Part shown: in pieces, positions 3,922 through 43,283 of the stretch
How the letters are laid out: every line of letters starts with the position of its first letter
Numbering within the stretch: position 1 is the stretch's first letter
NCBI GenBank assembly: GCA_964448105.1
Contig: CAYUVK010000006.1
Span: forward strand, 8,443-72,442
Length of the DNA: 64,000 bases
Direction: 5' to 3'
Origin: an uncultured Ignavibacteriaceae bacterium
Lineage (GTDB): Bacteria; Bacteroidota; Ignavibacteria; Ignavibacteriales; Ignavibacteriaceae
Made by a program: the position numbers and the translations under genes
Notes under the pieces: generated by a model
Told to the model about the DNA's origin: nothing
The model's database searches: none
What the model saw: only the letters and a program-made list of their open reading frames with translations

Positions 3922-4628
3922 ATTTTAATGATAACGAATCTTATTTTCTTTAGAGTGCGATTGTTCTTCAGGTTCCTCCATTTCTTTTTCATCCATTTCT
4001 TTTGAATAAGAATTATATTCTTCGGGTGAAGTTTTATGAAGTTGTTTTACTGCAGCTACAATTGCCCATATTTTATCATCGGGATGAGTTCTACCCCATG
4101 CCGGCATTCCCGTCATTTTAATTCCGTTTTTAGTTACCCAAAATAATTCTTCTGCGCTCATTTCTTTACCTGACTCACTCAAATCTGGTGCAGGCGGATT
4201 TAATCCTTTTGCCAAATTTGTTTCTTTCTTCCCCGGTGCACTGTGGCAGCTTTCACACATTTCTTGATAATGTACAAAACCTTCTTTAATCATGGATGAA
4301 TCATTTAGATCCGGAGCCTTAATCGCTTTAGAATGATGCTCAACAGAATTATCGCTTGTAGTTTCTAAAACCCATTTGGAGATTCCTGTTTCAGGTTTTA
4401 TTGCACTTACATTGTATAGGCCTGAGTAAATAAATATGATGCCTAATACGCCTAATCCAATAAATGTAAATAATATTGATAAAATGATTTTCATTGTTTT
4501 TCTTAGATATTTTAGTGAATATTTTTGTAGGATAAGTTAAAGGTTAAAAGTTAAGATTCAAAGGTCAGGGATCAAAGATTGACTATGATTAGTAATTCTT
4601 AATCCAAATTGAGTTGTTTTGAATTAGA
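3922..4628. repeat. Direct repeat copy A (~0.7 kb; cytochrome c gene plus its upstream region)
   Basis: Hand alignment with 21109-21813. The two copies are identical from ATTTTAATGATAACGAATCTTATTTT through the whole CDS. Similarity then decays through ATCAAAGAT...TTGTTTTGAA in the 5' flank. Confidence 0.8.
3925..4494 (-). CDS. Membrane-anchored monohaem c-type cytochrome (paralogue A)
   Basis: N-terminal TM helix, a single CESCH haem motif and a downstream MTGMPAWG (Met ligand region). About 23 of 189 residues differ from the 21112-21681 copy by hand alignment. Confidence 0.85.
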   Translation of the reverse strand: MKIILSILFTFIGLGVLGIIFIYSGLYNVSAIKPETGISKWVLETTSDNSVEHHSKAIKAPDLNDSSMIKEGFVHYQEMCESCHSAPGKKETNLAKGLNPPAPDLSESGKEMSAEELFWVTKNGIKMTGMPAWGRTHPDDKIWAIVAAVKQLHKTSPEEYNSYSKEMDEKEMEEPEEQSHSKENKIRYH

Positions 4629-4963: not shown

Positions 4964-7474
4964 ATGTTTAAGTTAAATAAATTTTTGCCTTGGTTATCCA
5001 TCCGGAACAAACTGATTATTGCATTTACAGGTCTTTCTTTATTGCCCATTATGGTAGTCGGTGTATATGGAATTGTTACTAACACGAAGATGATGAGACA
5101 TATTGCAATTCAAAATCTCAATCATGATCTTTCCTTGCTTCAGGAAAATACGGCAAGCCTAATGTCTGGGATAGAAAGTGATCTTCGGCTGATTCAAAAT
5201 TCATATTTGAATAAGAATTTATTGAATACATCGAAAGATCAACACTATTTTTTACAAACACATACAATTAAAGATTTAAATGACGGACTTCTATCTTTAG
5301 TTAAATCACGAAGGATTTACTACCAGATTAGAGTTATGGATTATTTGGGAAATGAAATTTCACGCGTACAATCAGAATCATCCAATTTGACAGATGATTC
5401 ATATCAGATTGTTGCCAGAAATGAATTACGACCATTTCCTGAAGTCTATTACCTTTATCTTGTAAAAAATCTTTCCAAAGGTCAAATTGCATTAGCTCCG
5501 GCCGAACTTCGTGGAACAAATAATAAATTAATACCTGTGGTAAGTTTTGCTGTGCCTATAAGTTATGGAGACAAGGAATCCGGTATTCTTATTGCAGATG
5601 TGTATGTTAAAAGCCTTTTCGGCTCTTTACAGACTTATAAACCTCTAGCCCAGGATGAGGAAGTAATTTTAGCAAGCAGCGATGGTCATTACCTTTATCA
5701 TTCTTTAAAGAAAAAGAACTGGAATAAATTGTTAGCTGAAAGAAATGAATATAATCTTCAGCATGATTTTTCTGTTCCTGTAACAAATAAAATTCTTTCA
5801 AACCGGAAATCTACATTTATCGATGAAAGTAATTATATAATCTCTCATTCACCACTTTTCTATGGATATTCTTCAGTTTATCATTCAAGCATAGAACAGA
5901 GTTTCGCAATTCCGTTATATTTAATTGTTGCTGTTCCTAAAGCAATCATTATGTCTCCTGTTCACTCTTATGAAAATACATTTGCAGGTATACTTGTATT
6001 ATTCCTTATCATTTCAATTACATTAAGCCTATTGGCGACAAGACATTTTACTACTTCGCTTGCAACACTTACAAGAGGGGCTGAAACAATTACCAAAGGG
6101 AATTATGATTACAGGGTTAATGTAGAGACGGGTGATGAGATTGAAAAATTAGCTGAGCAATTCAATTTAATGGCAAAATCATTATTTGCACATGAAAAGG
6201 AAATACAGCAATATAGATTACACCTTGAAGAAATGGTTGCTTCCAGAACGGAAGAGCTTTTTTCCGAAAAATCAAAGTTGCAGGCCATACTTGATAATTT
6301 ACCGAGTGCATTTTTACTTCTTGATAAAGAATTGCGTATACAAACTGCAAGCGCTGCATTTAATACAATCACGGGTTACAATATTGATGATGTAAAAGGA
6401 GAAAATTGCAGCAAGATTTTCGGTACAAACGGATCATGTACTAATTGCATTTGCCAGAAAGCAATTTCAAATAATAAAATTGAAAGCTATATAAGCTGTA
6501 AAATAGATAACAAGCAGCAAGAACGCTACATTGAACATGTTGCCATTCCAATGAAGTATAATAGTGAAGTGATTGCCGTATTAGCAGTTATTACAGATAT
6601 TACGAAACGAAAGCAATTGGAAAATGTTTTAGTTAAAACAGAGAAGCTTGCTGCAACAGGAGAGATTGCAGCATTTGTAGCCCATGAATTCCGTAATTCT
6701 CTGACATCAATTAAAATGATTCTTCAACTTTTAGCGGAATCTGAACACGTTTCGAAGTCTGAAAAAAAATCTGTTACCGTTGCACTCAATTCTACCGGGG
6801 AAATGGAAGAAACTGTTACCAAGCTGCTTAACTATGCTTACCCGGTTCCGATGAACTTTCAAGCTGCAAGCATTGACACGATATTGAATGAAAGTCTCGT
6901 TTTTGTCCAGCTCCGTTTTCGTAAATCAAGGATATCTATCAAAAAAGAAATCGAACCTTCAATTCCACCAATATTTTTAGATGCTTCACATTTAAAGGAA
7001 GCAATAATTAATGTTCTTTTGAATGCCGTTCAGTCGATAGATGAAAAAAATAATTCATCTGAAAGTATAAACTTCGAAAAAGACGCAGTTAATAAAATTG
7101 GGATTTCAGTACGGAAAATAAATCTTAAAAAGACACTTCACGATTATAAATTAGAAGAAGCTATTGAATACACACATATTGAAAATGCAGATCGCAATAA
7201 ATATGAGATAATTTTACCAAAGGGAACCGAGTGTATTCTTTTACAAATTACCGATACCGGCGGTGGCATAGATCGTAAAGATATTTCGAGAATTTTCGAT
7301 CCGTTCTTCACTACAAAAACTAATGGTACCGGACTAGGGCTTCCAATGGTAAAGAGAACTATTAATGCTCATCGGGGTATTATTACAGTAGAAAGTAAAA
7401 AGGGAGCGGGTACAACTTTTGGTATCTTTATCCCATTACTTAACGAAGGTGATTCATTTCCTAAACATATCTGA
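4964..7474 (+). CDS. Sensor histidine kinase (2 TM, periplasmic Cache-like domain, HAMP, PAS, HisKA, HATPase)
   Basis: Two TM segments flank a ~300-aa extracytoplasmic region. H-box FVAHEFRNSL, N-box NVLLNAVQS, G-boxes DTGGGI and GTGLGL. PAS-like segment LQAILDNLPSAFLLLD. Confidence 0.9.
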   Translation: MFKLNKFLPWLSIRNKLIIAFTGLSLLPIMVVGVYGIVTNTKMMRHIAIQNLNHDLSLLQENTASLMSGIESDLRLIQNSYLNKNLLNTSKDQHYFLQTHTIKDLNDGLLSLVKSRRIYYQIRVMDYLGNEISRVQSESSNLTDDSYQIVARNELRPFPEVYYLYLVKNLSKGQIALAPAELRGTNNKLIPVVSFAVPISYGDKESGILIADVYVKSLFGSLQTYKPLAQDEEVILASSDGHYLYHSLKKKNWNKLLAERNEYNLQHDFSVPVTNKILSNRKSTFIDESNYIISHSPLFYGYSSVYHSSIEQSFAIPLYLIVAVPKAIIMSPVHSYENTFAGILVLFLIISITLSLLATRHFTTSLATLTRGAETITKGNYDYRVNVETGDEIEKLAEQFNLMAKSLFAHEKEIQQYRLHLEEMVASRTEELFSEKSKLQAILDNLPSAFLLLDKELRIQTASAAFNTITGYNIDDVKGENCSKIFGTNGSCTNCICQKAISNNKIESYISCKIDNKQQERYIEHVAIPMKYNSEVIAVLAVITDITKRKQLENVLVKTEKLAATGEIAAFVAHEFRNSLTSIKMILQLLAESEHVSKSEKKSVTVALNSTGEMEETVTKLLNYAYPVPMNFQAASIDTILNESLVFVQLRFRKSRISIKKEIEPSIPPIFLDASHLKEAIINVLLNAVQSIDEKNNSSESINFEKDAVNKIGISVRKINLKKTLHDYKLEEAIEYTHIENADRNKYEIILPKGTECILLQITDTGGGIDRKDISRIFDPFFTTKTNGTGLGLPMVKRTINAHRGIITVESKKGAGTTFGIFIPLLNEGDSFPKHI

Positions 7475-7484
7475 AAAATATTAA

Positions 7485-8906
7485 ATGAATAAATTTAACA
7501 AATTAAAAGAGAATAGAGGAAAAATTCTTGTTGTGGATGATGATCCCAAAATATTATTTGCCTTTCTTGAAGTTTTAAAGAAAGACGGTTATTCTGCTGT
7601 CACGGCAGGCGATGGAGAAGAAGCTTTAAAGGTAATCAGCTCCGAAAATATCGTACTGATTTTCATGGATATTTCAATTCCCAAAATAGACGGCTTGGAG
7701 GTTTTAAAAAGATTTAGAGAACTGGGGATAAATATTCCTACTATCATTATTACCGGTTACGGTATAATGCAAAATGCAATTAAAGCCATGCAGCTCGGTG
7801 CTTTTGACTATCTTACAAAACCACTTGACATAAATAAAATCAGAGAACTAACAAAAAATGCGCTGTCTAAATCGGTTAGAACTTCAGAGAATACCAAAAA
7901 CGATTTTACTTTTAATACAGATATAGTCGATAGTTATGAATTAATCGGCAGAAGCTCACGGATGCAGGAAATATATAAATTGATCGGTATGGTTTCCACG
8001 ACACCCAATACAGTTCCGGTATTAATCACAGGTGAAAGTGGTACGGGAAAAGAATTGGTAGCCAGGGCAATTCACGGCAACACATTAGAAACAGGTCACC
8101 CTTTTATAGGAATTAATTGTTCTGCGGTTCCTGATAACCTGCTTGAATCAGAACTGTTCGGTTACGAAAAGGGTGCCTTTTCGGGTGCTGAGACCCGTAA
8201 GTTAGGGAAGTTTGAACTTGCCCAGAACGGAACGATATTCCTTGATGAAATCGGCAATCTTTTACCAAACTTGCAGCAAAAATTGTTAAGGGTACTTCAG
8301 GAAAGAGAATTTGAAAGACTCGGCGGTAATGTTCCAATAAGAGTGCAAGCTCGATTCATAGCTGCAACAAACAAAGATCTTGAACCGGAAATTAAAAAAG
8401 GAAATTTTAGGGAAGATTTTTATTTCCGGTTGAATGTTGTGTCAATTAAATTGCCTCCCCTAAGAGAACGTCCTGAAGATATTCCCCTTCTTTCAAATTA
8501 TTTTTTAGCAAAATACAATGAGCATCTTAAAAAGAAGGTTGAGGGATTTTCAAAACAAACTATGGCACTTTTAAACAATTATCAATTTCCGGGAAATGTT
8601 AGAGAACTGGAAAATTTAATTGAGAGAGCAGTAATGCTGACAAGAGGAAAAGAAATTACAGATGACCTCCTGGAAAAAATGCTTAGCTTAAATCCGGTTA
8701 AGGCGCCGGTACTTCCAATTTCAGGATCAACACTCAAACAATCACGCGAACATATTATCAGGATGTTTGAACAACAATTTATTGAAAAAAAACTAGCCAA
8801 CACACATGGAAATGTTACTCTGGCAGCTAAAGATTCAGGAATGACAAGACAAAACTTCCAGCGCATGATGAAAAAGTATAATATAAAAGCATCAGATTTT
8901 AAATAA
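7485..8906 (+). CDS. Sigma-54-dependent response regulator (NtrC family: REC + AAA+ + Fis-type HTH)
   Basis: REC domain (ILVVDDD...FMDISIPKIDG), Walker A GESGTGKE, sigma-54 contact loop as GAFSGA, and a C-terminal HTH (GNVTLAAKDSGMTRQNFQRMMKKY). Confidence 0.92.
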   Translation: MNKFNKLKENRGKILVVDDDPKILFAFLEVLKKDGYSAVTAGDGEEALKVISSENIVLIFMDISIPKIDGLEVLKRFRELGINIPTIIITGYGIMQNAIKAMQLGAFDYLTKPLDINKIRELTKNALSKSVRTSENTKNDFTFNTDIVDSYELIGRSSRMQEIYKLIGMVSTTPNTVPVLITGESGTGKELVARAIHGNTLETGHPFIGINCSAVPDNLLESELFGYEKGAFSGAETRKLGKFELAQNGTIFLDEIGNLLPNLQQKLLRVLQEREFERLGGNVPIRVQARFIAATNKDLEPEIKKGNFREDFYFRLNVVSIKLPPLRERPEDIPLLSNYFLAKYNEHLKKKVEGFSKQTMALLNNYQFPGNVRELENLIERAVMLTRGKEITDDLLEKMLSLNPVKAPVLPISGSTLKQSREHIIRMFEQQFIEKKLANTHGNVTLAAKDSGMTRQNFQRMMKKYNIKASDFK

Positions 8907-9057
8907 TATAAATCCTTCATATCAAAACCTGCATAAATAAAGATATATTAAGACAAAGATAAATCAGAATAAAAAATTACTTCGCTTAAATGAAATTGGT
9001 TCCGCTTATTTATTTATCATATACTCCTATTCCCATTATACCTATGTACCTTAAAAG

Positions 9058-9097
9058 TGTAAAATAATCTTTGGCACATGTAAAATAAAACTTGGCA
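9058..9097 (+). promoter_or_regulatory. Two 19-bp direct repeats spaced 21 bp apart (candidate enhancer / UAS for the sigma-54 activator)
   Basis: TGTAAAATAATCTTTGGCA (9058-9076) and TGTAAAATAAAACTTGGCA (9079-9097). They lie ~75-115 bp upstream of the candidate -24/-12 element. Confidence 0.35.
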
Positions 9098-9170
9098 GTT
9101 TTTCCTTCTCAAAAATAATTCTATCCGTGTAAATCTCTACTAATGAACTATTTAATACATTTACTCAAAC

Positions 9171-9184
9171 GGCATACATGTTGA
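9171..9184 (+). promoter_or_regulatory. Candidate sigma-54 (-24/-12) promoter
   Basis: GGCATACATGTTGA compared with the consensus GGCAC-N5-TTGC. The GG and the TTG are at the correct spacing, but the final C is an A. It lies ~35 bp upstream of the REC gene start. Confidence 0.35.
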
Positions 9185-9216
9185 ACAAACCATATTAAAT
9201 TATTTGTGCAAAAGTA

Positions 9217-9606
9217 GTGATGAATAGACCAAAGATATTAGTTGTAGATAGTGATAAAAATATTCTTTCAGCTTTCAGTAATTATTTAAGGAAGAAAAAA
9301 TATTCAATGACCGGTGTAAATAATATTGAAGCAGGATTGAATAAAATCTATAAACAAAATTTTAATCTTGTGATTACTGATGTTAGGATTAATTCGGAAT
9401 TTGGAACAAGTTTTATCTCACAAATTAAAGAGACCCAAAATAGCTTACCAATAATTGCAATTACAAGTTATCCAGATAAAATAAAAGAATCCGATTTGAA
9501 AATTTGCGGTGCAGATTATCTTTTTATAAAACCTTTAGAACTTAGTCAGCTTGATAAAGCAATCGAAAACTGTTTAAAATCAAATTTAACAAACAAAATA
9601 ATATAG
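9217..9606 (+). CDS. Stand-alone receiver (REC) domain response regulator
   Basis: CheY-like pattern ILVVDSD...LVITDVRIN...IIAITS...K. There is no output domain. The start is GTG 9217 or ATG 9220. Confidence 0.85.
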   Translation: MMNRPKILVVDSDKNILSAFSNYLRKKKYSMTGVNNIEAGLNKIYKQNFNLVITDVRINSEFGTSFISQIKETQNSLPIIAITSYPDKIKESDLKICGADYLFIKPLELSQLDKAIENCLKSNLTNKII

Positions 9607-9615
9607 GGTGAAAAA

Positions 9616-10995
9616 ATGGTATCAACTACTTTTATATTTTTTATAGAATCACTTTTAGGACAGAAGAAGAAGAAAATATATCTTATTCTATCCATAATTG
9701 GAATGCTCATGTTTCTGACTGCACCCAATAATTATGCTATTCCAAGCTTTGCAAGACAGACTAATTTATCATGCAATTACTGTCATTACACTTATCCTGC
9801 CCTGACCCCGTTCGGGAGGATGTTTAAACTGAACGGGTATACTATGACAAATGTTGAAACGATCGAAGCCGTTTCACCGGATAGTGAACATACAACGCTG
9901 AAGATTCCATCGACATATTCATTTTCTGCATTTGTGAAATCTTCATACACTTCTATAAGCAAAGCAGCACCGGGTATAAAAAATAGCTTTGTTCAATCTC
10001 CCGAAGAAATAAGCTTATTTTTCTCAGGCGAAATAACTCCAAAAATAGGTGCATATGCTCAACTTACATACGGTTTAAGCGATGGAGCTATTGGGTTGGA
10101 TATGCTCGATATCAGATATGCAGATCATGCAAGACTTGGAACGAAAGATCTGTTGTATGGGATAACATTAAATAATATGCCAACTATGCAGGATGTTTGG
10201 AACACAACTCCAGCCTGGGGTTTTCCATATTATGGTTCTGAATCGGCTCCATCTCCTACCGCCGCTACTTTAATACAATCGATGGAAGGTGTTGCAGGTT
10301 TAGGTGCTTATGCGCTGTATAATAATTTAATTTACGTGGAGGTTACGGGTTATCATTCTTCACCAGCTGGAGTTTCTTATCCGCCCGATGCCTCATGGGA
10401 AATGAATACTAAAGGAGTGTCACCATACTGGAGAATAGCACTTCAGCATAAATGGGAAAGTCAATATGTTATGGTAGGAACTTACGGCATGTCTTCAAGT
10501 ATTTATCCGGCAGGAATAACCGGCTCAACAAATAAATATACGGATGTCGGCTTTGATGCTCAATATGAAAATATTGGTGATAATGGGGGTTCATGGATTT
10601 TTCATACAACATATATAACCGAGAAACAAAATCTGGATGCGACTTTTAGTGATGAAGGTTCGGCTAATGCAAGCGACAAATTAAATTATTTTAAGATCGA
10701 CGGTACGTACAATTTCCCTGAGTTGGCATCACTTTCGGCAGGATTCTTCTCAGTAAGCGGTTCAAACGATGCAATTCTATATGCTCCGGGTGATGTTTCA
10801 GGAAGTCTTAACGGTGAGCCGAACAGCAGCGGTGAAATCCTTCAATTGACATTCTTACCCTGGATGAATACTCAAATTGGAGTTCAGTACACACTATACA
10901 ATAAATTCAATGGTTCCAGCAGTAACTATAATGGTTCGGGCAGAAATGCTTCCGATAATAATACTTTGTATTTAATGGGATGGTTCGTGTTCTAA
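9616..10995 (+). CDS. Fused monohaem cytochrome c / outer-membrane beta-barrel protein (Cyc2/Cyt572-like architecture)
   Basis: Signal peptide (KKKKIYLILSIIGMLMFLTAPNNYA), a single CNYCH immediately after the predicted cleavage site, then ~400 aa rich in Gly/Tyr/Ser with alternating strands. It ends in the OMP-type terminus GWFVF. Confidence 0.6.
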   Translation: MVSTTFIFFIESLLGQKKKKIYLILSIIGMLMFLTAPNNYAIPSFARQTNLSCNYCHYTYPALTPFGRMFKLNGYTMTNVETIEAVSPDSEHTTLKIPSTYSFSAFVKSSYTSISKAAPGIKNSFVQSPEEISLFFSGEITPKIGAYAQLTYGLSDGAIGLDMLDIRYADHARLGTKDLLYGITLNNMPTMQDVWNTTPAWGFPYYGSESAPSPTAATLIQSMEGVAGLGAYALYNNLIYVEVTGYHSSPAGVSYPPDASWEMNTKGVSPYWRIALQHKWESQYVMVGTYGMSSSIYPAGITGSTNKYTDVGFDAQYENIGDNGGSWIFHTTYITEKQNLDATFSDEGSANASDKLNYFKIDGTYNFPELASLSAGFFSVSGSNDAILYAPGDVSGSLNGEPNSSGEILQLTFLPWMNTQIGVQYTLYNKFNGSSSNYNGSGRNASDNNTLYLMGWFVF

Positions 10996-11048
10996 CTGTG
11001 CGCGGATTTTATTCAAATATGATGTTAAAATTTTGGGAGTAAATAAAA

Positions 11049-11531
11049 ATGAAAATGAAAATGAATTCAATTATGACACTGTTACTTTTTAGCTCTTTTA
11101 TTTTTTTCCTGGGATTTGAATTAGAAAATCCAAACGTGGTTAAATCTTTAAAAACAAATCCTGAATTTCAACAGAAGGATAAACCTTCAAATTTAGCAGA
11201 TAAAGGGATTGGTCCAATCAAAGAAATAAAGCTGGGAAGCATAGATCAAAAATTGGTTGATAAAGGAAGCTCCATATTTTATGACAAATGCGCATTATGC
11301 CATAATATTGATGATGTAAACCTGGCCCCTCCTTTACGGGGAATTAGTAAATATCTATCACCTGAATTCATTATGAACTACTTAATGAATACAACCGAAA
11401 TGCAGAAGAAAGATCCTTATATAAAAAAATTAATCCAGGAATGGAAGAAAGTGCCAATAATGAAGGATCAGCATTTAAAGAAAAAAGATGCCAGGGCAGT
11501 ACTGGAGTTTCTTAGATCATTAGACGAATAA
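11049..11531 (+). CDS. Monohaem class I c-type cytochrome, exported or anchored
   Basis: Hydrophobic N-terminus, a single CALCH motif and the size of a small class I cytochrome. Confidence 0.8.
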   Translation: MKMKMNSIMTLLLFSSFIFFLGFELENPNVVKSLKTNPEFQQKDKPSNLADKGIGPIKEIKLGSIDQKLVDKGSSIFYDKCALCHNIDDVNLAPPLRGISKYLSPEFIMNYLMNTTEMQKKDPYIKKLIQEWKKVPIMKDQHLKKKDARAVLEFLRSLDE

Positions 11532-11553
11532 TTAAGCCCCATACCCGTTAAAC

Positions 11554-11582
11554 TTGCCTGCCGGAAGGCAGGCTTGTTTACT
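11554..11582 (+). terminator. Rho-independent terminator
   Basis: GCCTGCC-GGAA-GGCAGGC stem-loop followed by TTGTTT, located 25 bp after the stop of the cytochrome gene. Confidence 0.6.
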
Positions 11583-11715
11583 CGCTTCAGAGGCTTCCAA
11601 TAACTACATAAAAGTTTCACTGTAATAGTTTGAAAAAAAACATAGCAAGAAAAAGTTTAACTAACAGAAGAATTTTCGTTGTGATAATTGCAGAAATTAT
11701 TGAATTAAAATCATC

Positions 11716-12228
11716 ATGAGAAATAAAATATTCATTTTAGTTTTCTTCATATTAGGTTTTGTTATTAGTCTCTTACTAATAAATGATAATTCAAAGAATG
11801 CCACGGATATCGATCCTGTGTCTTTCAGCCACTATGTCCATACCAAAGAGCATAAGATAAAATGTGTAAATTGCCACAGGGGTGTTGAAACACAAGCGCG
11901 TGCAGAAATCCCTAATGTAAAAATTTGCAGTGTCTGTCATTCAAGGTTAATGAATCCTAAATCGGAAAAAGAAAAAAAGATTTATGAGTATGTGAAAGAA
12001 AACAAAACAATTCCCTGGAAAGTATTCTATTATGTTCCAGATTATGTTTACTTCTCTCACAGAAGACATGTTAAGCTTGGCAAATTGGATTGTACCGCTT
12101 GTCATGGTGATATGAGAGAGCAAACTTCACCTGAACTGAAAAATTTTAGCCCGGTAAAAATGCAATTTTGTTTTCAATGCCATGAAGATAAAAAAATAAC
12201 AACAGACTGCGGCAACTGCCATCATTGA
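11716..12228 (+). CDS. Membrane-anchored pentahaem cytochrome c (ActA/QrcA-like)
   Basis: N-terminal TM helix and five CxxCH motifs (CVNCH, CSVCH, CTACH, CFQCH, CGNCH). Confidence 0.85.
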   Translation: MRNKIFILVFFILGFVISLLLINDNSKNATDIDPVSFSHYVHTKEHKIKCVNCHRGVETQARAEIPNVKICSVCHSRLMNPKSEKEKKIYEYVKENKTIPWKVFYYVPDYVYFSHRRHVKLGKLDCTACHGDMREQTSPELKNFSPVKMQFCFQCHEDKKITTDCGNCHH

Positions 12229-12282
12229 TTTTCAAAATGCTAACGAAACTATTAAATAATGATTAACCGGAGAATAAACTGA

Positions 12283-14547
12283 ATGGAAATTAATAGAAGG
12301 GATTTTGTGAAACTGTTTGGAGGTTCTTTATTTGGACTTGCAATCGGAGGCGGTGCCGGAGCTATGTTAAAGCTTCCTAAAAAAGCAGAACCAATTCTTT
12401 ATTCCGGCCCAAGGATTGAATCCTGGAAATTGACTGCTTGTACAAAGTGTCCGGGCAGCTGCAGCCTTAGGATTCGTCTTATTGATGATCTCCCAATCCA
12501 GGCATTCGGTAATCCAAATTCTCCAATAAATGAAGGTGGAATTTGCCCGCTAGGGCTTGTGTCTGTAGCAGATTTATATCATCCTGCCCGGCTTACAAAT
12601 CCTGTTAAAAAAATAAACGGTGAATTTAAACCGGTATCTTATAAAGAAGCTTATAATATTATTTCTGATAATTTGAAGAATATTATTTCGAACAAAAGGC
12701 AGGATGATGTTTTTATTGTTGCACAAACCGAGTCAAAATTTCGAGTTGAATTGTTTCGGAAATTTTCTGATACCACTGGTTTTAAAAATCTAATAATTGA
12801 TAATTTCCGTGACGGAAGCTCTTTTCCGTTTTTTAAAGCAGCAGGTAATGCCCCGGATTTTATTGATTTTGATAAGTGCGATTATATATTAAACTTTGAT
12901 GCACAGTTCACCGAGATTTCTCAAAATCCTATTTACTTTACAAGAAAGATAAATGAATACAGATCTAAAGGATTTAAGATTACGACTGTTCAACCAAAGT
13001 TAACACCGGGTGTTGCTAAATTAGATGAATGGATACCCCTTCAGCCTGTTTTATTTGGAAATTTTGCATTGGGAGTTGCATATGTCTTATTGAAAGATGA
13101 CCAGTATGACAAAAGCTTTTTAGAGGAAAACTTTTCCGGATTTACCGATTTTAAAAATCATGTGCTGGAAAATTATGTACCGGATAAAGTGGCAAAGTTA
13201 ACAGGTATACCTGCAGAGAAAATTATTGAGATAGGCAGAGAATTTGAAAAAGCATCATCACCTGCTGCCTATTTTGATGAGTCGGTATTGTATAATTCAA
13301 ACGGGACACAAAATGCCTTTGCTATAATTGCCTTAAATGCATTAAAAGGATTTCGCAGCTTTGGTAAAATAAAGAATAGTTTTTTATCATCAGTTTTACA
13401 AAATGAAAGCCGGGAGATCAATATAACTTTTACAAATTTGATGGCTCGGCTTTCAAAAAGTAACGCTCTACAAGCTCTACTAATATCCGGAAGTAATTTT
13501 GTGTTCAATAGTCCCGATAGTGAAGCTCTGAAAAAACAATTAAGTTCCATTCCTTTTATTGTCAGCTTCTCCTCCTTTGTAGATGAAACTTCTTCATTTG
13601 CGCATTTGATAATTCCAGACCACTGCAATTTAGAAAAGCTTGACCTGCTGCTTAACAATTCGATGGGAGTACCTGCTGTTACCTTACAACAGCCGGTTGT
13701 TGAACCTTTTTTCAAAACTTCTGATACAGGTGATGTGCTAATATCTTTAATGAAGGAGATTAAACCGGAAGCAAAAGTTCAATATGAAAATTATTCAGAT
13801 TATATCACACAGATAGCAAAGAAAATTTACTCAGGCAGAGAAGGTATTTTTATGGATCAAAATAAGCCGACGGTGATTGAGAAAGGATTAAGGAAAATCG
13901 GGTGGCAGACCGAACAATTCGGCAGCTTTGATGATTTCTGGGACAGCCTGACGGATTCAGGAGGATGGTGGGATCCTTTTGCGGAAAAAGAACCATACAA
14001 TCCCAAAATTGATTTTAAACCGGCGTTTTATAAAGAATCTTTTACGACAAAGAACTCATTGAACTCCATACCAAAGAATAAACTACATTTAAACATCTTT
14101 AAAAGAAACTTGGACTATAAAGGGAACATGAGCATTTATCCCGTTCTTGTAGAACAGTTCGGGAGCAACTGGTCTGTCTTCTATCAACTATGGGCTGAGA
14201 TAAACCCGGTGACGGCACGCAGTTTATCTCTGCGTGATAGAAGCAAAGTAATATTAAAAACTAACAAAGGAAAATTCCCGGCAGTTTTAATTTACAATCC
14301 TACTGTTGTACCGGGCAACCTGGATATTCCTTTTGGATTAGGACATACGATTCTGGGTGACACATGCGGTGTTAACCCACTAATTTTTTCAGAAAATAAA
14401 ATTGATAAACCAACCGGTAAACCTTCTTTTTCCGAATCATTAATTGAGATTGAAGGTTCTTCGTTAAAAAATTCTTCGTTGGCTGAACAAGTGAAATTAA
14501 ATCAAAAACAATTTGCAGAAAATCAAGTTAGGAGAGATTATGCCTAG
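12283..14547 (+). CDS. Tat-exported molybdopterin-oxidoreductase-family (MopB) subunit (ActB1/QrcB/PsrA-like)
   Basis: Twin-arginine signal MEINRRDFVKLFGG. N-terminal FS0-type cluster motif CTKCPGSC...GGICPLG. 754 aa. Confidence 0.85.
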   Translation: MEINRRDFVKLFGGSLFGLAIGGGAGAMLKLPKKAEPILYSGPRIESWKLTACTKCPGSCSLRIRLIDDLPIQAFGNPNSPINEGGICPLGLVSVADLYHPARLTNPVKKINGEFKPVSYKEAYNIISDNLKNIISNKRQDDVFIVAQTESKFRVELFRKFSDTTGFKNLIIDNFRDGSSFPFFKAAGNAPDFIDFDKCDYILNFDAQFTEISQNPIYFTRKINEYRSKGFKITTVQPKLTPGVAKLDEWIPLQPVLFGNFALGVAYVLLKDDQYDKSFLEENFSGFTDFKNHVLENYVPDKVAKLTGIPAEKIIEIGREFEKASSPAAYFDESVLYNSNGTQNAFAIIALNALKGFRSFGKIKNSFLSSVLQNESREINITFTNLMARLSKSNALQALLISGSNFVFNSPDSEALKKQLSSIPFIVSFSSFVDETSSFAHLIIPDHCNLEKLDLLLNNSMGVPAVTLQQPVVEPFFKTSDTGDVLISLMKEIKPEAKVQYENYSDYITQIAKKIYSGREGIFMDQNKPTVIEKGLRKIGWQTEQFGSFDDFWDSLTDSGGWWDPFAEKEPYNPKIDFKPAFYKESFTTKNSLNSIPKNKLHLNIFKRNLDYKGNMSIYPVLVEQFGSNWSVFYQLWAEINPVTARSLSLRDRSKVILKTNKGKFPAVLIYNPTVVPGNLDIPFGLGHTILGDTCGVNPLIFSENKIDKPTGKPSFSESLIEIEGSSLKNSSLAEQVKLNQKQFAENQVRRDYA

Positions 14548-15229
14548 ATACGGGATGGTTATTGATCTTAATAAGTGCAATCAATGTGAAGCATGTGTTA
14601 CCGCTTGCAAGCTTGAAAATAACGTTCAGATAGTTTCAAAAGAAAATGCCGAAATGGGAAGAGTTATGCAATGGATGAAAATGCTTACGACAAATCATGA
14701 GGGAAATTACCCGGAAATTAGACCTGTAAGTCTCCCAGTTTTTTGTGTCCAGTGTGATGATCCCCCTTGTATAAAAGTATGTCCGGTAAGAGCAACTTAT
14801 AAAAGAGACGACGGAATCGTTGCACAAATTTATCCTCAGTGCATAGGATGCAGGTATTGCATGGCTAACTGCCCTTACACAGTAAAAGTATTCAACTGGT
14901 ATAAAGATGAACAGCCTGTTGAATATGAAAAATGCTATAACACTGATGTTTCTGTACGACCTAAAGGTATAGTTGAGAAATGTACTTTTTGTATCCATCG
15001 ATTACAAAAAGCTAAGGAAAAGTCAAAAGCTGAACATAGAAAAATGCAGGAAGAAGATTATGTTACTGCATGTACAGAAGTATGCCCTGCCCATGCAATT
15101 CATTTTGGTGATCTGGATGATCCCAACAGTCATGTTTCCAAATTAATGAACGATTATAGAAAGTTCACGTTACAGGAAGAACTGGGAACGGAACCGAAGG
15201 TTTATTACTTGAGCGAAAAATCCCAATGA
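14540..15229 (+). CDS. 4x[4Fe-4S] ferredoxin-type subunit (ActB2/QrcC/PsrB-like)
   Basis: Cys clusters CNQCEACVTAC, CVQCDDPPCIKVCP, CIGCRYCMANCP and CTFC. I prefer the ATG at 14540 (MPRYGMVIDLNKC), which is preceded by AGGAGA, over the track start at 14513. Confidence 0.9.
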   Translation: MPRYGMVIDLNKCNQCEACVTACKLENNVQIVSKENAEMGRVMQWMKMLTTNHEGNYPEIRPVSLPVFCVQCDDPPCIKVCPVRATYKRDDGIVAQIYPQCIGCRYCMANCPYTVKVFNWYKDEQPVEYEKCYNTDVSVRPKGIVEKCTFCIHRLQKAKEKSKAEHRKMQEEDYVTACTEVCPAHAIHFGDLDDPNSHVSKLMNDYRKFTLQEELGTEPKVYYLSEKSQ

Positions 15230-15268
15230 AGATTTTCGATTTATCAATACAATAATTAAGGTTTTCAG

Positions 15269-16615
15269 ATGAACAATCAAAACTTCGTTGATGAAGATGA
15301 GACATTATTTAGACCTATATATCACACCGGAAAAGGTTTCTATGCTTTTGCAGCCGCCTTAGCAGCCATAGTTTTGTTCGGCATTTTTATGTATATCCGT
15401 CAGCTCATATTCGGACTTGGAGTTACCGGAATGAACGAACCTGTAAGCTGGGGATTTTATATAATCAGCTTTGTTTTCTTTATTGGTATTTCACATGCAG
15501 GAACACTTATATCTGCAATTCTACGATTGTCAAAAGCAGAATGGCGGAGGCCGATAACTAGAATGGCAGAAGTGATTACTGGAATTGTCCTTTTGATTGG
15601 TGGTCTTCATCCAATTATTGACTTAGGCAGACCGGACAGGATACTTCATATATTTGAACGTGGGCGTTTACAATCTCCGCTTCTTTGGGATGTTACCAGC
15701 ATAACCGCCTATTTTACCGCTTCAACAATTTACCTTTATCTTCCATTAATTCCAGACATTGCACTGCTAAGAGATAGAGGCGGAAGATTTCATAAGATTT
15801 ATGAAATATTATCCTGGGGATACGAGGGTACCGAAAAACAAAAACATGTTCTGGAAAGAGCAATAAATATTTTGATGGTCATGGTTATTCCAATTGCAGT
15901 TTCGGTTCATACCGTAATCTCATGGATATTCTCAATGACTTTGCAGCCTGGTTGGCACAGCACTATTTTCGGTCCTTATTTTGTTGTGGGTGCAATTTAT
16001 TCAGGTATAGCTGCACTTATAATTGTTATGATTGCATTCCGGAAAGCTTACCATTTACAAGATTATCTCAAAGAAATTCATTTTAGATATCTTGGTACGC
16101 TGCTTTTGGTCATGTCGCTGCTCTGGTTTTATTTCACATTTGCTGAATACTTAACTACTTTTTACGGGCATGAGCCGCCGGAAATGCGTGTTTTCCTCTA
16201 TAAATTCGTTGGTAATTACTCTTTCTTTTTCTGGCTTATGGTAGTTTGCAATTTTATCATTCCTGTTGTCTTTTTAAGTAATAAAAAACTTAAGACCATT
16301 GGGGGAATTTTATTTACATCAATAGCGGTAGTACTCGGTATGTGGCTTGAAAGATTAATTATTATTGTTCCATCTATGGCGAATCCAAGACTTCCCTATC
16401 CAACGGGAATTTATGTCCCGTCTTTAACGGAAATATCACTTCTTCTTGCTGCTACTGCTGCATTTGTTCTAGGATTTATGGGATTTTCAAAACTATTTCC
16501 TTTGGTTTCAATATGGGAGATCAAAGAGGGACGTGAACAAAGTGTAAAAACTGTATCGGAACGGTTACACGAATATTTGCCTTCAAAAGGTCATATAAGA
16601 AATGAAATTGTATGA
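15269..16615 (+). CDS. NrfD/PsrC/ActC-family integral membrane quinone-interacting subunit
   Basis: 448 aa with about ten hydrophobic helices. NrfD-like segment VSWGFYIISFVFFIGISHAGTLISAIL. It directly follows the FeS subunit gene. Confidence 0.88.
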   Translation: MNNQNFVDEDETLFRPIYHTGKGFYAFAAALAAIVLFGIFMYIRQLIFGLGVTGMNEPVSWGFYIISFVFFIGISHAGTLISAILRLSKAEWRRPITRMAEVITGIVLLIGGLHPIIDLGRPDRILHIFERGRLQSPLLWDVTSITAYFTASTIYLYLPLIPDIALLRDRGGRFHKIYEILSWGYEGTEKQKHVLERAINILMVMVIPIAVSVHTVISWIFSMTLQPGWHSTIFGPYFVVGAIYSGIAALIIVMIAFRKAYHLQDYLKEIHFRYLGTLLLVMSLLWFYFTFAEYLTTFYGHEPPEMRVFLYKFVGNYSFFFWLMVVCNFIIPVVFLSNKKLKTIGGILFTSIAVVLGMWLERLIIIVPSMANPRLPYPTGIYVPSLTEISLLLAATAAFVLGFMGFSKLFPLVSIWEIKEGREQSVKTVSERLHEYLPSKGHIRNEIV

Positions 16616-16883
16616 GGGACTTATGTTGAGTAAAATAAAAAGTATCTTCGGAAAAAATATTCTTATTCAAACTGTACTTTTGTCATTTTTATGGATGCTT
16701 GCATCAGGGATGACACTTCTGTTAATTAATTTAGTGCAAGTCTCCTATGAAGTTAATGATCATCAATCTGCTTCAATTGCTATAAGTATTCTTGGAATTA
16801 TTGTTTTTTGGATTTTAGCAGGCATTTTAACATATGTTTTGGTCGGATTATACAAAGGAAGAAAAAAGGAGAGTAATAAATGA
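16602..16883 (+). CDS. Small two-TM membrane protein (possible accessory subunit)
   Basis: Two hydrophobic helices. It is translationally coupled on both sides (overlaps the NrfD stop, and ATGA overlap with the next gene). An alternative start is the ATG at 16620, after GAGGGA. Confidence 0.5.
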   Translation: MKLYEGLMLSKIKSIFGKNILIQTVLLSFLWMLASGMTLLLINLVQVSYEVNDHQSASIAISILGIIVFWILAGILTYVLVGLYKGRKKESNK

Positions 16884-18073
16884 AAATCAGAATTTTGTTT
16901 TTTATCTTCTTAATTGCTTTAATATCTACTACATTCATTTATTACGGATTTACACCAAATATTTTTTTTCAGCAGAAGCAATCAGAGAAAAAAAATCTGC
17001 CTGAAAATCCATTAGATGGTCGATTAGTCTTTGAGGGCAAGGGTTGTATTGACTGCCATGCAATTAATGGATTCGGTGGACATACTGCACCCGATTTCGG
17101 AACACATAATTTTTTCGGAAGTGATTATGATTTGATATCCGAAATGTGGAACCACTCGCCTAATATGTTTAAAGAAATGGAAAAAAAGAAAATTGATAAT
17201 CAAAAATTTAACACCACTGATTTTGGTAATCTCCGTTACTTTCTTTATTTCCTGCGTTACTTAGGAAGCAATGGAAATGTAAGTAAGGGGCATGAACTTT
17301 TTATTAAAATGAAATGCAGTGATTGCCATTCAGTCGGCGAAGGGAATGCGAAAAAAATTAGGCTTGATACAATAGGAGTTTATGCTACACCTCTTTACCT
17401 GGCACAAGTAATGTGGAATCATGCTCTCAAAATGCAGAAAATGCAAAAGATTTCCGGTATTAAAATTCCGAAATTTAAAAATAATGATTTTGCCGACCTA
17501 TCGTCTTATATAGCAGAAGTTAGTACTTATGGAAAGCGGGAAAAAAATTACATGTCACCAGGCAATCCTTTGAAAGGAGAAAAATTATTCGAAAGTAAGA
17601 AGTGCAGTTATTGCCATGTACAAAACCATATTGGACCGGATTTAACAAATTTTAATTTTAATAAGAGCGTAACGGAAATAGCCGGTATAATGTGGAATCA
17701 TGCTTTAAACATGGAAGAAGTTATGAGGAAAAATAAAATTTCATGGCCTTCATTTGAGGGAGATGAAATGGCAAATCTCATTTCATACCTGTATTTTAAA
17801 AACCGGGGTGATATTAAAGGTTCCGTCGAAGAAGGCAAGCAGCTTACTCAGCAGAAAGGATGCATCAGTTGTCATAGTGCAGGTAATTCATATGATGCTC
17901 CTGATATAAATAGTATCGGACCTTTTAACAGTATGGATTATTTTTTCAGTGAATTGTGGAATCATTTGCCGTTAATGGAAAAGAATCTGTATATAAAAGG
18001 TAAATCTCTGCCGAAGCTCTTGCCTTCAGATATAAAATCGTTGTATCTTTACTTTGACCGTAAAAACCGGTGA
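16880..18073 (+). CDS. Membrane-anchored tetrahaem cytochrome c built from four tandem class-I-like domains
   Basis: N-terminal TM helix. Four CxxCH motifs (CIDCH, CSDCH, CSYCH, CISCH), each followed ~30 aa later by a [ML]WNHxxxM motif. Confidence 0.85.
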   Translation: MKIRILFFIFLIALISTTFIYYGFTPNIFFQQKQSEKKNLPENPLDGRLVFEGKGCIDCHAINGFGGHTAPDFGTHNFFGSDYDLISEMWNHSPNMFKEMEKKKIDNQKFNTTDFGNLRYFLYFLRYLGSNGNVSKGHELFIKMKCSDCHSVGEGNAKKIRLDTIGVYATPLYLAQVMWNHALKMQKMQKISGIKIPKFKNNDFADLSSYIAEVSTYGKREKNYMSPGNPLKGEKLFESKKCSYCHVQNHIGPDLTNFNFNKSVTEIAGIMWNHALNMEEVMRKNKISWPSFEGDEMANLISYLYFKNRGDIKGSVEEGKQLTQQKGCISCHSAGNSYDAPDINSIGPFNSMDYFFSELWNHLPLMEKNLYIKGKSLPKLLPSDIKSLYLYFDRKNR

Positions 18074-18122
18074 AGGCATATTTTTTTGACGCCTGACGAT
18101 CATAAGTAAAGAAGTACATTTT

Positions 18123-18731
18123 ATGAATATTAAGTTATGTTCATTGTTTATCTTTTTTTTGTCGACTATCCTTTTTACCAAAACTGCATCTGCTGGTAAC
18201 ATTAAAGGTAAAATTAATCTTGAGGGAACAAAAAGCAACGCCGGAGTTTTAGTATTCATCGAACATGTTGACGGTTCTTTTGCTCCACTTAAAAAACCGG
18301 CAGTCATGGATCAAAAAGATTTTATGTTCATACCAAAAATATTACCAATTTTAGCAGGCACAACAGTAGACTTTTTAAATAGCGACAGCGTGCTGCACAA
18401 TGTATTTACACCAACAAAATGTGCTGATAGCTTTAATCTTGGAACTTGGCCTAAAGGCCAGTCCCGTTCATATACTTTTAATAATGCAGATTGTTTTGTT
18501 ACAATACTCTGTGATGTTCACCCTTATATGCAAGCATGGATAGCCGTACTTCAAAATCCTTTTTTTGCACAAACAAATGAAATAGGAGAATATGAAATAA
18601 AAAATATTCCCCCGGGTAATTATAAATTAAAAATCTGGTACCCGTTTTACGAAACCGAATCTAAACATATTACTGTCAGCGGTACTCAAATATTAGTAAA
18701 GAATTTTACATTAAAAAGAACAAGCGAATAA
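18123..18731 (+). CDS. Exported cupredoxin-like (type-1 copper) protein with a CarboxypepD_reg-like C-terminal beta-sandwich
   Basis: Signal peptide. Candidate T1Cu ligands are LHNVF ... CDVHPYM (C-x2-H-x2-M, amicyanin-like spacing). C-terminal segment GEYEIKNIPPGNYKLKIWYPF. Confidence 0.65.
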   Translation: MNIKLCSLFIFFLSTILFTKTASAGNIKGKINLEGTKSNAGVLVFIEHVDGSFAPLKKPAVMDQKDFMFIPKILPILAGTTVDFLNSDSVLHNVFTPTKCADSFNLGTWPKGQSRSYTFNNADCFVTILCDVHPYMQAWIAVLQNPFFAQTNEIGEYEIKNIPPGNYKLKIWYPFYETESKHITVSGTQILVKNFTLKRTSE

Positions 18732-23507: not shown

Positions 23508-23648
23508 TTAAGTTTCCCCTTCCACAATTTTTATTTCTTCTTCGGTTAGGCCGTAAAGCTGATAAACTAATTGGTCGATTTGTTTATCTGTAGCATCTAT
23601 TTGCCTTTGGAGTACAGTTTTTTCTTGGGGGTTTATTAAAGATGACAT
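23508..23648 (-). pseudogene. 3'-terminal remnant of a DNA methyltransferase / type IIG-type I R-M gene
   Basis: Hand translation gives ...QEKTVLQRQIDATDKQIDQLVYQLYGLTEEEIKIVEGET*. This is the characteristic C-terminal tail of N6-adenine R-M methylases. Its only start codon lies inside the REP-like hairpin. Confidence 0.45.
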
Positions 23649-33806: not shown

Positions 33807-33867
33807 TTAATTTCTCCAAAATTTTTTTTGAGCTTGACCACTATAAGAAACTGTTAAATAAATTTCT

Positions 33868-43266: not shown

Positions 43267-43283
43267 TTGAATTCCCCTTATTA

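Follow-up and report, generated by a model that had tools for sequence, protein, structure and literature searches.

A conserved gene cluster of Ignavibacteriaceae and relatives joins a Cyc2-family cytochrome-porin, a cupredoxin and an Alternative Complex III-like module under putative sigma-54 control

Which role could a tightly packed set of genes for an outer-membrane cytochrome, periplasmic electron carriers, a quinone-interacting complex and a regulator pair have in an uncultured Ignavibacteriaceae bacterium? The question is raised by twelve genes located at positions 4964-18731 of a 64,000-nt stretch of DNA (GenBank assembly GCA_964448105.1, contig CAYUVK010000006.1, positions 8,443 to 72,442 of the forward strand), hereafter called the window, to which all coordinates refer. 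A first-pass annotation, made from the sequence alone, had suggested that these genes could provide an electron path between the cell surface and quinone, and each part of this reading that in silico work could address was borne out. Our analyses indicate that they form a conserved unit with a fused cytochrome-porin of the Cyc2 family, a variant of Alternative Complex III (ACIII), a dedicated cupredoxin and a predicted sigma-54-type promoter. We tentatively interpret the region as a single regulated respiratory unit that links the cell surface with the menaquinone pool, an interpretation to which we assign slightly less than even confidence.

In the open reading frame listing of the window, all twelve genes are on the plus strand, in the order sensor kinase, NtrC-type activator, REC-only regulator, Cyc2-like protein, monohaem cytochrome c (c1), pentahaem cytochrome c (c5), MopB protein, iron-sulfur (FeS) protein, NrfD-type membrane protein, a peptide with two transmembrane (TM) segments, tetrahaem cytochrome c and cupredoxin. 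The gaps between them range from -14 to 54 nt, except for two larger spacers, one of 310 nt upstream of the REC gene and one of 184 nt downstream of the monohaem cytochrome gene. Every gene of the one-stranded, tightly spaced set in the first-pass annotation was recovered at its place from the open reading frames, most of them with Pfam and NCBIfam matches, and its remark that the cluster has no terminal oxidase holds for all twelve genes. The Cyc2-like, c1, pentahaem and tetrahaem proteins contain one, one, five and four CxxCH motifs, respectively, and the same numbers were found in their orthologues. The same DNA is found in a public assembly, with an identical Cyc2 product and the remaining products 98-100% identical. 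We set the borders of the unit at 4964 and 18731 since the flanking genes differ between the genomes that carry it.

How widely the unit is inherited was examined by scanning a genome collection with the Cyc2 alignment, which gave 80 species-level loci, in which the window proteins were then located by tblastn. The unit was found in seven species-level genomes and five metagenome contigs, with all 12 genes present wherever the contig was long enough. Five Ignavibacteriaceae or 'Bacteroidetes' metagenome-assembled genomes (MAGs) have the same genes in the same order, three of them with the full set and two interrupted by a contig end, and the order of kinase and activator is swapped in one further 'Bacteroidetes' MAG and one Kryptoniota MAG. 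A reciprocal search with MopB against metagenome contigs retrieved seven close relatives, all with the same arrangement, and Cyc2 and c1 were present in each of the five metagenome MopB contigs with enough upstream sequence. Taken together, Cyc2 and c1 accompany this MopB clade, in the same order, in all 12 loci with enough sequence, and the flanks are unrelated. The clade is small: among 120 clusters listed, 54 are at least 47% identical, and the next match is at 34%. The conservation of the gene neighbourhood, which the first-pass annotation had named as a check, is thus borne out across Ignavibacteriaceae, 'Bacteroidetes' and Kryptoniota MAGs and metagenome contigs, and an arrangement that recurs across genomes with differing flanks is more than chance. 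Homology and synteny show what the parts are, that they are inherited together and that the loci have a promoter architecture in common.

More distantly, MAGs of the Zixibacteria, Bacteroidales and Deltaproteobacteria (loci L040, L063 and L079) have a Cyc2 homologue within a few kb of FeS/NrfD or MopB/FeS genes with 22-37% identity to the window proteins. This suggests that the linkage of Cyc2 with modules of the CISM (complex iron-sulfur molybdoenzyme) type arose recurrently and independently.

The protein that gives the cluster its connection to the cell surface is the 459-aa product of the gene at 9616..10995 (+). It had no match in Pfam, NCBIfam or a sequence search of the Protein Data Bank (PDB), and a comparison at the level of the fold was needed because the last of these came back empty. 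There are more than 3,800 homologues. The protein contains a single CNYCH at residues 53-57, which follows a KKKK and a hydrophobic segment ending in NYA, and all orthologues likewise have one CxxCH. According to Keffer et al. (mBio 2021, PMC8406198), a Cyc2 protein has a porin body of 365 aa or longer and a single CxxCH that is preceded by AxPxFAR[Q/K][T/Y] and followed, four residues on, by PxL; the corresponding stretch of the window protein, AIPSFARQT-NLS-CNYCH-YTY-PAL, matches this published motif. In an alignment of 40 homologues (48-78% identity), residues P43, R47, Q48, T49, C53, C56, H57, P61 and L63 are invariant, and the C-terminal phenylalanine corresponds to an aromatic residue that is conserved throughout. 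The AlphaFold2 model is a beta-barrel (pLDDT 75, pTM 0.74), for which Foldseek placed 16-18-strand porins at the top, with OmpT, OmpF, OmpC, DcaP and AlgE among the matches and E-values down to 2.5e-9. The predicted barrel and the invariant haem motif agree with the cytochrome-porin proposed in the first-pass annotation, and we assign the product to the outer-membrane monohaem cytochrome-porins of the Cyc2 family.

The presence of Cyc2 in the Ignavibacteriales lineage is not new, as earlier surveys of marker genes had recorded homologues in MAGs of the Ignavibacteriaceae/Ignavibacteriales and Zixibacteria. Known iron oxidisers are absent among the 80 nearest genome loci to the window Cyc2. The gene that follows, at 11049..11531 (+), encodes a predicted periplasmic class I monohaem cytochrome (Pfam Cytochrom_C). 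In 25 of the 80 related genome loci, some of them without ACIII-like genes, Cyc2 is followed by a homologue of this cytochrome. For the nearest other Cyc2 homologues (39-56% identical) it is mostly the sole partner, and Chlorobia are known to pair cyc2 with a monohaem cytochrome. The c1 protein and the cupredoxin are soluble carriers, probably of high potential.

What, then, connects these carriers to the membrane? The first-pass annotation described the next genes as a Qrc/ACIII-like quinone module, for which ACIII-like is the more precise description. The pentahaem cytochrome (11716..12228, +; five CxxCH, N-terminal TM segment at residues 5-23) resembles a membrane-anchored ActA, with matches to the Chloroflexus ActA structure (8k9e_A, 2.1e-20 over residues 4-160) and to 6btm_A, 6f0k_A and 6lod_A. 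The FeS subunit (14540..15229, +), with a probable start at the ATG at 14540 and not the TTG at 14513, has 16 cysteines in four four-Cys motifs and is ActB2-like, matching residues 797-1023 of R. marinus ActB (6f0k_B, 6.5e-57). The NrfD-family protein (15269..16615, +), predicted to be the quinone-interacting membrane subunit, with a quinone/proton role, matches four ACIII ActC structures at near full length with E-values from 2.7e-69 to 1.7e-65 (6lod_C 2.7e-69, 6f0k_C 1.9e-68, 6btm_C 1.3e-66). It is the most conserved protein of the unit (orthologues 77-93% identical) and the single NrfD-type protein in the cluster, with a weak match to ActF (5e-11).

Downstream of the ActC-like gene, a 93-aa peptide (16602..16883, +; TM segments at 25-43 and 63-81) occupies the position of ActD, and its stop codon overlaps the start of the next gene. 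The peptide is conserved in orthologous loci; it has no match to the Pfam ActD model (PF11821) and no similarity to the ActD of a Terriglobia MAG, which itself matches PF11821 at 9e-28, and only position and topology agree. The position of ActE is taken by a membrane-anchored tetrahaem cytochrome c (16880..18073, +; TM segment at 3-21, Pfam Cytochrom_C and Cytochrome_CBB3) with four class I repeats and four CxxCH, a number that orthologues share.

All four subunits that could belong to a Qrc complex score below the NCBIfam cut-offs (QrcA 98/180, QrcB 223/440, QrcC 268/400, QrcD 43/570, score/cut-off), although the QrcA, QrcB and QrcC models are ranked first for their three subunits, and membership in Qrc was rejected on these grounds. 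The likeness to QrcABCD of sulfate reducers is in the parts, which also comprise a multihaem cytochrome c, MopB-like, FeS and NrfD-like subunits, and in the quinone-reducing direction that we propose below. The donor to Qrc is the low-potential cytochrome c3, unlike the class I cytochromes or copper protein here, the membrane subunit is ActC-like, and QrcB has been described as lacking cofactors, whereas the window MopB keeps the FS0 cysteines.

The similarities to the canonical ACIII of Rhodothermus, Flavobacterium, Roseiflexus and Chloroflexus are more extensive and include homologues of ActA, the C-terminal part of ActB and ActC in act order, a Tat-exported MopB protein, and a small TM protein and a cytochrome after ActC. 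Canonical ActB is a fusion of the MopB and FeS parts, holding one [3Fe-4S] and three [4Fe-4S] clusters, and its MopB domain (ActB1) lacks cofactors. Here, the two parts are split, MopB is nearer to catalytic enzymes and retains FS0, and the third FeS motif is CIGCRYCMANCP (CIGCRYC) both in the window and in seven aligned Ignavibacteriaceae, 'Bacteroidetes' and Kryptoniota orthologues, whereas R. marinus ActB and a variant in the Terriglobia MAG (locus L045, 15379-16083) have CIGT (CIGTRYC). With CIGC in place of CIGT, all four FeS clusters are of the four-Cys type. Furthermore, the window module differs from the canonical complex by having no ActF, no detectable ActD homology, a tetrahaem instead of a monohaem ActE and no adjoining oxidase operon. 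By sequence and structural similarity, we classify it as a variant of ACIII, neither a Qrc complex nor a catalytic reductase.

The MopB subunit stands apart from the other three; it lies at the ActB1/QrcB position (12283..14547, +), carries a Tat motif (NRRDFVK) and matches the Pfam families Molybdopterin and Molybdop_Fe4S4. Its best PDB matches are catalytic enzymes, ArrA at 3.7e-30 and Fdh at 6e-30, with ActB at just 4e-7, and the FS0 cysteines (C53, C56, C60 and C88) do not vary among 26 family members and are present also in a distant Terriglobia homologue. The MopB/FeS/NrfD proteins could thus be a true periplasmic molybdoenzyme, Psr/Arr/Ttr-like or of a new specificity, with the Cyc2-like protein and the cytochromes as its substrate channel or electron partners. 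The invariant FS0 and the four-Cys type of all FeS clusters are features shared with catalytic CISM enzymes, the sigma-54 two-component control is reminiscent of Aio/Arx operons, and arsenic and metal resistance genes are present in the window.

A molybdenum ligand is difficult to recognize, however. Cys193, the ligand in ArrA, falls in a gap of the alignment, and at the position opposite the Fdh ligand most orthologues have Ser, another point for a molybdoenzyme, but others have Gly, Thr or Val. No position between residues 151 and 191, the active-site segment, is invariant among the family members. The scores for the catalytic NCBIfam models remain far below their cut-offs (PhsA 148/694, ArrA 118/1600, TtrA 31/1750), and MopB is the least conserved of the three core subunits, with 47-72% identity as compared to 72-93% for the FeS and NrfD proteins. 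Its partners are homologues of ActA and ActC, and the metal-resistance flanks are not conserved in other genomes. A catalytic Psr/Arr/Ttr identity, suggested by the top PDB matches, was rejected on ligand and active-site conservation, and the concern raised in the first-pass annotation that MopB might group with catalytic polysulfide, thiosulfate or tetrathionate reductases did not materialize: it is not a recognizable Psr, Phs, Ttr or Arr enzyme. We consider a molybdoenzyme of any specificity highly unlikely and favour the interpretation that MopB probably binds FS0 and is molybdenum-free.

The last gene of the unit (18123..18731, +) encodes a 202-aa protein with a signal peptide, a predicted secreted type-1 copper cupredoxin with an added beta-sandwich that is carboxypeptidase-regulatory-like. 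The putative ligands H92, C130, H133 and M136 are invariant in 39 homologues, as are C100 and C124, and the C-x2-H-x2-M loop is amicyanin-like, with ligands that align with those of amicyanin and the C-terminal cupredoxin domain of NirK. The AlphaFold2 model (pLDDT 89) retrieved amicyanin (TM-score 0.73, target-normalized), plastocyanin and pseudoazurin as the top Foldseek matches. The Pfam family Copper-bind is below the cut-off for the window protein and above it for the Terriglobia homologue; clustering at 90% leaves a family of more than 3,000 members. No homology to rusticyanin was seen in the tests that were run.

Convergent with the cupredoxin gene is a gene for a copper-translocating P1B-type ATPase with a His-rich N-terminus (19031-21094, -; TIGR01511, 628 bits), and further away are genes for a CusCBA-type RND efflux system (an AcrB-family pump, a membrane-fusion protein with heavy-metal-binding domains and an outer-membrane factor) and for ArsP/ACR3-type permeases (30627-36876, -, and 42211-44381, -). 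This metal-resistance neighbourhood is not common to the other genomes that carry the cluster. Its presence raises the question of whether the cupredoxin and Cyc2 could oxidise periplasmic Cu(I) or another metal for detoxification, together with the adjacent ATPase and the CusCBA system 12 kb away. A 64%-identical ATPase also directly follows a Cyc2 homologue in a deltaproteobacterial MAG (locus L079, 11483 onward). However, the ATPase and Cus genes are missing from the flanks of all other full clusters, a quinone-linked complex with 10 haems and 5 FeS clusters would be out of proportion to detoxification, and the ATPase is more simply explained as a copper supply for cuproproteins, which it may well be. 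We give scarcely any credence to a role in metal homeostasis.

How might such a unit be controlled? The first two genes encode a sensor histidine kinase (4964..7474, +) with a dCache/HK_sensor-like domain of about 300 aa, predicted to be periplasmic, and HAMP, PAS, HisKA and HATPase domains (Pfam), and an NtrC-type sigma-54-dependent response regulator (7485..8906, +) with REC (Response_reg), Sigma54_activat (8.5e-66) and HTH_8 domains, for which no NCBIfam equivalog reached its cut-off. TM segments at residues 17-35 and 340-358 bracket the sensor domain of the kinase. Kinase orthologues are located at the same position in loci L002-L004, L006, L009 and L085-L088, and a full-length homologue with 34% identity heads a Cyc2-cupredoxin cluster in the Marinimicrobia; the activator is 74-79% identical in Ignavibacteriaceae loci and 50% identical over its full length in the Marinimicrobia. 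The cytoplasmic PAS domain of the kinase contains a cysteine triad, C-x10-C-x2-C, at residues ~482-497 (about 6405-6455), which is kept as far as the Marinimicrobia homologues, with four cysteines in most Ignavibacteriaceae. This triad may be a metal, Fe-S or redox sensing site and suggests a second, cytoplasmic redox or metal input. A single-domain response regulator with REC only (9217..9606, +; Response_reg 2.9e-18) precedes cyc2 by a gap of 9 nt and is found upstream of Cyc2 in all full clusters.

In the 310-nt spacer before the REC gene, the first gene after the putative promoter, we identified a candidate -24/-12 element of the sigma-54 type, CGGCAT-ACATG-TTGAA (9170..9185, +), about 35 nt upstream of the REC ATG. 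The candidate was recognized because the upstream regions of orthologues were compared, a pattern scan being uninformative by itself. All 12 loci have CGGCAY-N5-TTG ahead of REC, located 42-58 nt before the REC start in the eight loci measured and in the corresponding upstream region in the other four, and one locus (L007) has the canonical GGCAC-N5-TTGCA at this element. Two 19-bp sites next to each other, TGTAAAATAATCTTTGGCA (9058-9076) and TGTAAAATAAAACTTGGCA (9079-9097), lie about 75-115 bp further upstream and together form a candidate enhancer, or upstream activating sequence (9058..9097, +). These sites correspond to dyads of the form TGYMAAAT-N3-ATTTKRCA in relatives and are conserved among loci that lack conserved flanks. 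In an alignment of eight upstream sequences that are otherwise 62% identical, CGGCA, TTG and TTGGCAG are the invariant columns. Element and dyads have the layout expected for an NtrC-type activator acting at a sigma-54 promoter, and the conservation pattern suggests that the 19-bp sites act as an enhancer for the activator. The sigma-54 two-component control suggested in the first-pass annotation from the regulatory genes thus gains support from the activator domains and from two features, the promoter element and the dyads, that it had not described. The rpoN gene was not seen in the 64-kb window.

The second large spacer, after c1, contains a GC-rich hairpin, GCCTGCC-GGAA-GGCAGGC (11556..11573, +), with a stem of 7 bp of which 6 are GC. 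The hairpin noted in the first-pass annotation is thus real, though the T tract (TTGTTT) is weak. About half of the orthologous loci have a hairpin of comparable stability in this spacer, and since the hairpin is not universally conserved after c1 we do not consider it to be a defining part of the unit; it is a candidate attenuator or 3' stabilizer. No sigma-54-like element was found upstream of the c5 gene, between the hairpin and c5, or upstream of the kinase gene, and scans for sigma-70 promoters and terminators in the window gave results at chance level. With no element before c5 or the kinase, the ACIII-like genes are therefore probably transcribed by read-through of the hairpin.

Does the ACIII-like complex actually work with Cyc2? 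More distant homologues of the cupredoxin, 46-52% identical, were sampled for their genomic contexts. In the L093-L095 family of dereplicated metagenome contigs, in locus L099, in the Marinimicrobia, in the Calditrichaeota and in another MAG, a Cyc2-like protein of 384-434 aa with the motif IPxF[AS]RKYKTSCxTCH...PKL is encoded ahead of the cupredoxin. In some of these sister clusters (L093-L100; e.g., L097, 1496-14476, and L098, 3489-16053, are two of the series) a YtkA-like gene lies between the two. After the cupredoxin come genes for a GltD-like FAD/FeS protein, a Rieske protein, a split cytochrome b, a multihaem cytochrome of ~650 aa and a cytochrome c. Four of the six sister loci begin with a kinase and a sigma-54 activator built like those of the window. 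For anammox bacteria, complexes have been described in which Rieske/cytochrome b is joined by a flavoprotein of the NAD(P)H type and a multihaem cytochrome; a module of this type, which is absent from the window, replaces the ACIII-like one in the Marinimicrobia, Calditrichaeota and Terriglobia. The Terriglobia MAG (locus L045, 85-18144) carries both types in tandem, one version in the order cupredoxin, FAD/FeS protein, Rieske protein, cytochrome b, octahaem cytochrome and cytochrome c, and the other in the order Cyc2, cupredoxin, ActA, MopB, FeS protein (CIGT), ActC and a recognizable ActD. Likewise, a cupredoxin homologue directly follows Cyc2 in the Acidobacteria (L045, L067, L071 and L078).

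Because the quinone-level module varies between loci, the conserved core consists of Cyc2 and the cupredoxin, often with the regulator pair, and the swap of the ACIII-like for the Rieske/cytochrome b module places the variable part at the position of a "complex III". As judged from gene order, this interchange is the strongest in silico argument that the ACIII-like complex works with Cyc2. We can envisage a widespread, modular and hitherto undescribed respiratory "supermodule" in phyla rich in organoheterotrophs (Ignavibacteriota, Kryptoniota, Acidobacteriota, Marinimicrobia and Calditrichota), in which a core of Cyc2 and a dedicated cupredoxin, usually with the kinase/sigma-54 pair, is plugged either into the ACIII variant, with a Mo-free MopB and FS0 as a new electron entry, or into a Rieske/cytochrome b complex that includes an NAD(P)H-type flavoprotein. 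We put this forward as a possibility that deserves attention, while considering it on balance more likely to be wrong than right.

In which direction would electrons move? The order of carriers in the following scheme and the direction of flow are what we infer from the parts. The kinase would sense a periplasmic signal and phosphorylate the NtrC-type activator, which would bind the two upstream sites and open the sigma-54 promoter in front of REC, cyc2 and c1, and transcription would continue past the hairpin through the ACIII-like genes to the cupredoxin gene. An extracellular reductant, soluble Fe(II) or one similar to it, could then be oxidised at the haem of Cyc2 and the electrons passed to c1 or the cupredoxin. 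Two onward routes are conceivable: to an oxidase or reductase whose gene lies elsewhere, or by way of the tetrahaem and pentahaem cytochromes and the FeS chain to menaquinone, which would be reduced at the ActC-like site with the aid of the proton-motive force. Electron uptake of this kind is in our opinion the most likely mode, held with a confidence that falls a little short of one half. It is favoured because Fe(II) oxidation is the only activity demonstrated for Cyc2 proteins (Keffer et al., PMC8406198), because the pairing with a cupredoxin parallels that of Cyc2 with rusticyanin, and because a second complex III, dedicated and co-regulated, has parallels in petI of Acidithiobacillus and in the reverse-flow models for ACIII/bc1.

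Several observations weigh against such an interpretation. The sequence by itself gives neither the direction of flow nor the substrate. Cultured Ignavibacteria are organoheterotrophs, some of them Fe(III)-reducing. Transfer from high-potential carriers, such as class I haems and copper, to menaquinone is uphill, quinol oxidation is the only activity demonstrated for ACIII, and the genes flanking 4964-18731 provide no oxidase. The conserved FS0 cysteines have no obvious role if molybdenum is absent, and the serine at the Fdh-ligand position in most MopB orthologues leaves some room for a cofactor. As for the proposed control, the canonical C of the -12 element is variable and missing in most loci, and a scan of the window for the canonical TGGCAC-N5-TTGCW with up to two mismatches gave 22 matches, where 22 are expected, and none in the intergenic regions of the cluster.

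The fact that ACIII is a quinol oxidase, described as part of the aerobic chain in M. roseus, brings up the opposite direction, in which menaquinol would donate electrons to the ACIII-like complex and these would leave the cell via the tetrahaem cytochrome, the cupredoxin and c1 to Cyc2, and from there to soluble Fe(III) complexes, humic quinones or similar acceptors. Cyc2-bearing Ignavibacteriaceae from a humic bog have been discussed as relatives of Fe(III) and humic reducers, and the Ignavibacteriales MAGs in a published survey hold both "oxidation" and "reduction" gene sets. However, reduction of an extracellular acceptor has been shown for no Cyc2, the known Fe(III) reducers use multihaem conduits, and the potential of Cyc2 (+208 mV; Keffer et al., PMC8406198), combined with class I cytochromes and type-1 copper, would limit the outward route to high-potential acceptors. 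We regard outward transfer as rather unlikely.

A further option is that the two inputs converge, with Fe(II) electrons from Cyc2 and c1 and menaquinol oxidation by the ACIII-like complex both filling a common high-potential pool (tetrahaem cytochrome, cupredoxin) that is drained by a cbb3/caa3 oxidase or a denitrification enzyme encoded elsewhere, and no quinone reduction. Each component would then run in the direction known from experiments, and an external sink is needed in any case as the cluster has no oxidase. The ACIII of Chloroflexus also uses a blue-copper partner, auracyanin, as its acceptor. Yet this option accounts neither for the strict linkage and co-regulation of cyc2, in every locus, with a second, dedicated module of the complex III type, nor for the exchange of that module for a Rieske/cytochrome b one with an NAD(P)H-type flavoprotein in other phyla. 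We consider it improbable and retain electron uptake towards menaquinone as our working hypothesis.

For iron oxidisers, a route from Cyc2 through periplasmic cytochromes to ACIII or bc1 is already an established hypothesis, and reverse-flow models have been published. The neutrophilic, microaerophilic iron oxidisers Mariprofundus and Gallionellaceae, with their Cyc2-Cyc1-ACIII model, share with the window an outer-membrane cytochrome-porin with the Cyc2 motif, a periplasmic monohaem cytochrome, an ACIII-type complex and the proposed path from Fe(II) to quinone and to an oxidase. Their genes are dispersed and the link is hypothetical, whereas here a single conserved cluster comes with its own sigma-54 system and a cupredoxin, in host lineages that are not known as iron oxidisers. 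The complex also differs from theirs by the split ActB, the retained FS0, the absence of a [3Fe-4S] motif, the tetrahaem in place of ActE and the lack of ActF. The rus and petI operons of Acidithiobacillus ferrooxidans provide another parallel, with Cyc2, c-type cytochromes, the cupredoxin rusticyanin and a complex III for moving Fe(II) electrons towards quinone. This organism is however an acidophile with a chain of very high potential, a bc1 complex rather than an ACIII-like one, an aa3 oxidase inside the rus operon and other regulation, and rusticyanin is unlike the amicyanin-like cupredoxin of the window with its extra beta-sandwich.

The first-pass annotation knew of no such combination under a dedicated sigma-54 phosphorelay in an FCB-group genome, and no description of the cluster was found in the searchable literature, in which Cyc2 homologues alone have been reported from Ignavibacteriales MAGs. 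Nor did we find there the conserved physical linkage, a dedicated sigma-54 two-component system with promoter and enhancer, this variant of ACIII, the cupredoxin as a recurrent partner of Cyc2 or the interchange with Rieske/cytochrome b.

Other features of the window lie outside the unit. Two genes for 189-aa monohaem cytochromes c of the Cytochrome_CBB3 type (3925-4494, -, and 21112-21681, -), the products of which are 88% identical, bracket the cluster and the ATPase gene. The corresponding DNA repeat of ~300 nt (87% identity) is confined to coding sequence and the flanks are not shared by other genomes, and we found no evidence that the pair marks the boundary of an insertion or duplication, such as a mobile island. 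Two genes are of the defence type, one for a 994-aa fusion of a TOTE-system archaeo-eukaryotic primase, helicase and PLD nuclease (25159-28143, -) and one for a 402-aa HD-domain protein with a Pycsar-effector TM domain (PycTM; 2467-3675, -). A gene resembling REP-associated tyrosine transposases (23684-24304; NCBIfam 67 bits, below the cut-off of 80) is flanked by 47-nt direct repeats with 87% identity (23638-23684 and 24294-24340).

Our findings bear on two open questions about Cyc2, the main genetic marker for neutrophilic iron oxidation, namely its route to the quinone pool and its regulation. The earlier link to ACIII rested on the co-occurrence of unlinked genes, whereas here the linkage is physical, strictly conserved and reciprocal, and recurs with another complex III elsewhere. 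The cluster thereby offers genomic support for the hypothesized route between the cell surface and the quinone pool and supplies a candidate sensor kinase, activator, promoter and enhancer sites. If the idea of a widespread supermodule is correct, these organisms would have an inducible exchange of electrons with soluble extracellular iron or humic redox couples, and the first known regulator of cyc2. The ACIII variant, with FS0 retained and all clusters of the four-Cys type, may represent an evolutionary intermediate between catalytic molybdoenzymes and the cofactor-less ACIII and Qrc complexes. Finally, many of the Cyc2 matches in metagenomes from bogs, soils, sediments and the subsurface come from organisms with this type of cluster, and its direction would decide whether such matches signify the oxidation of iron or the reduction of soluble Fe(III) and humics.

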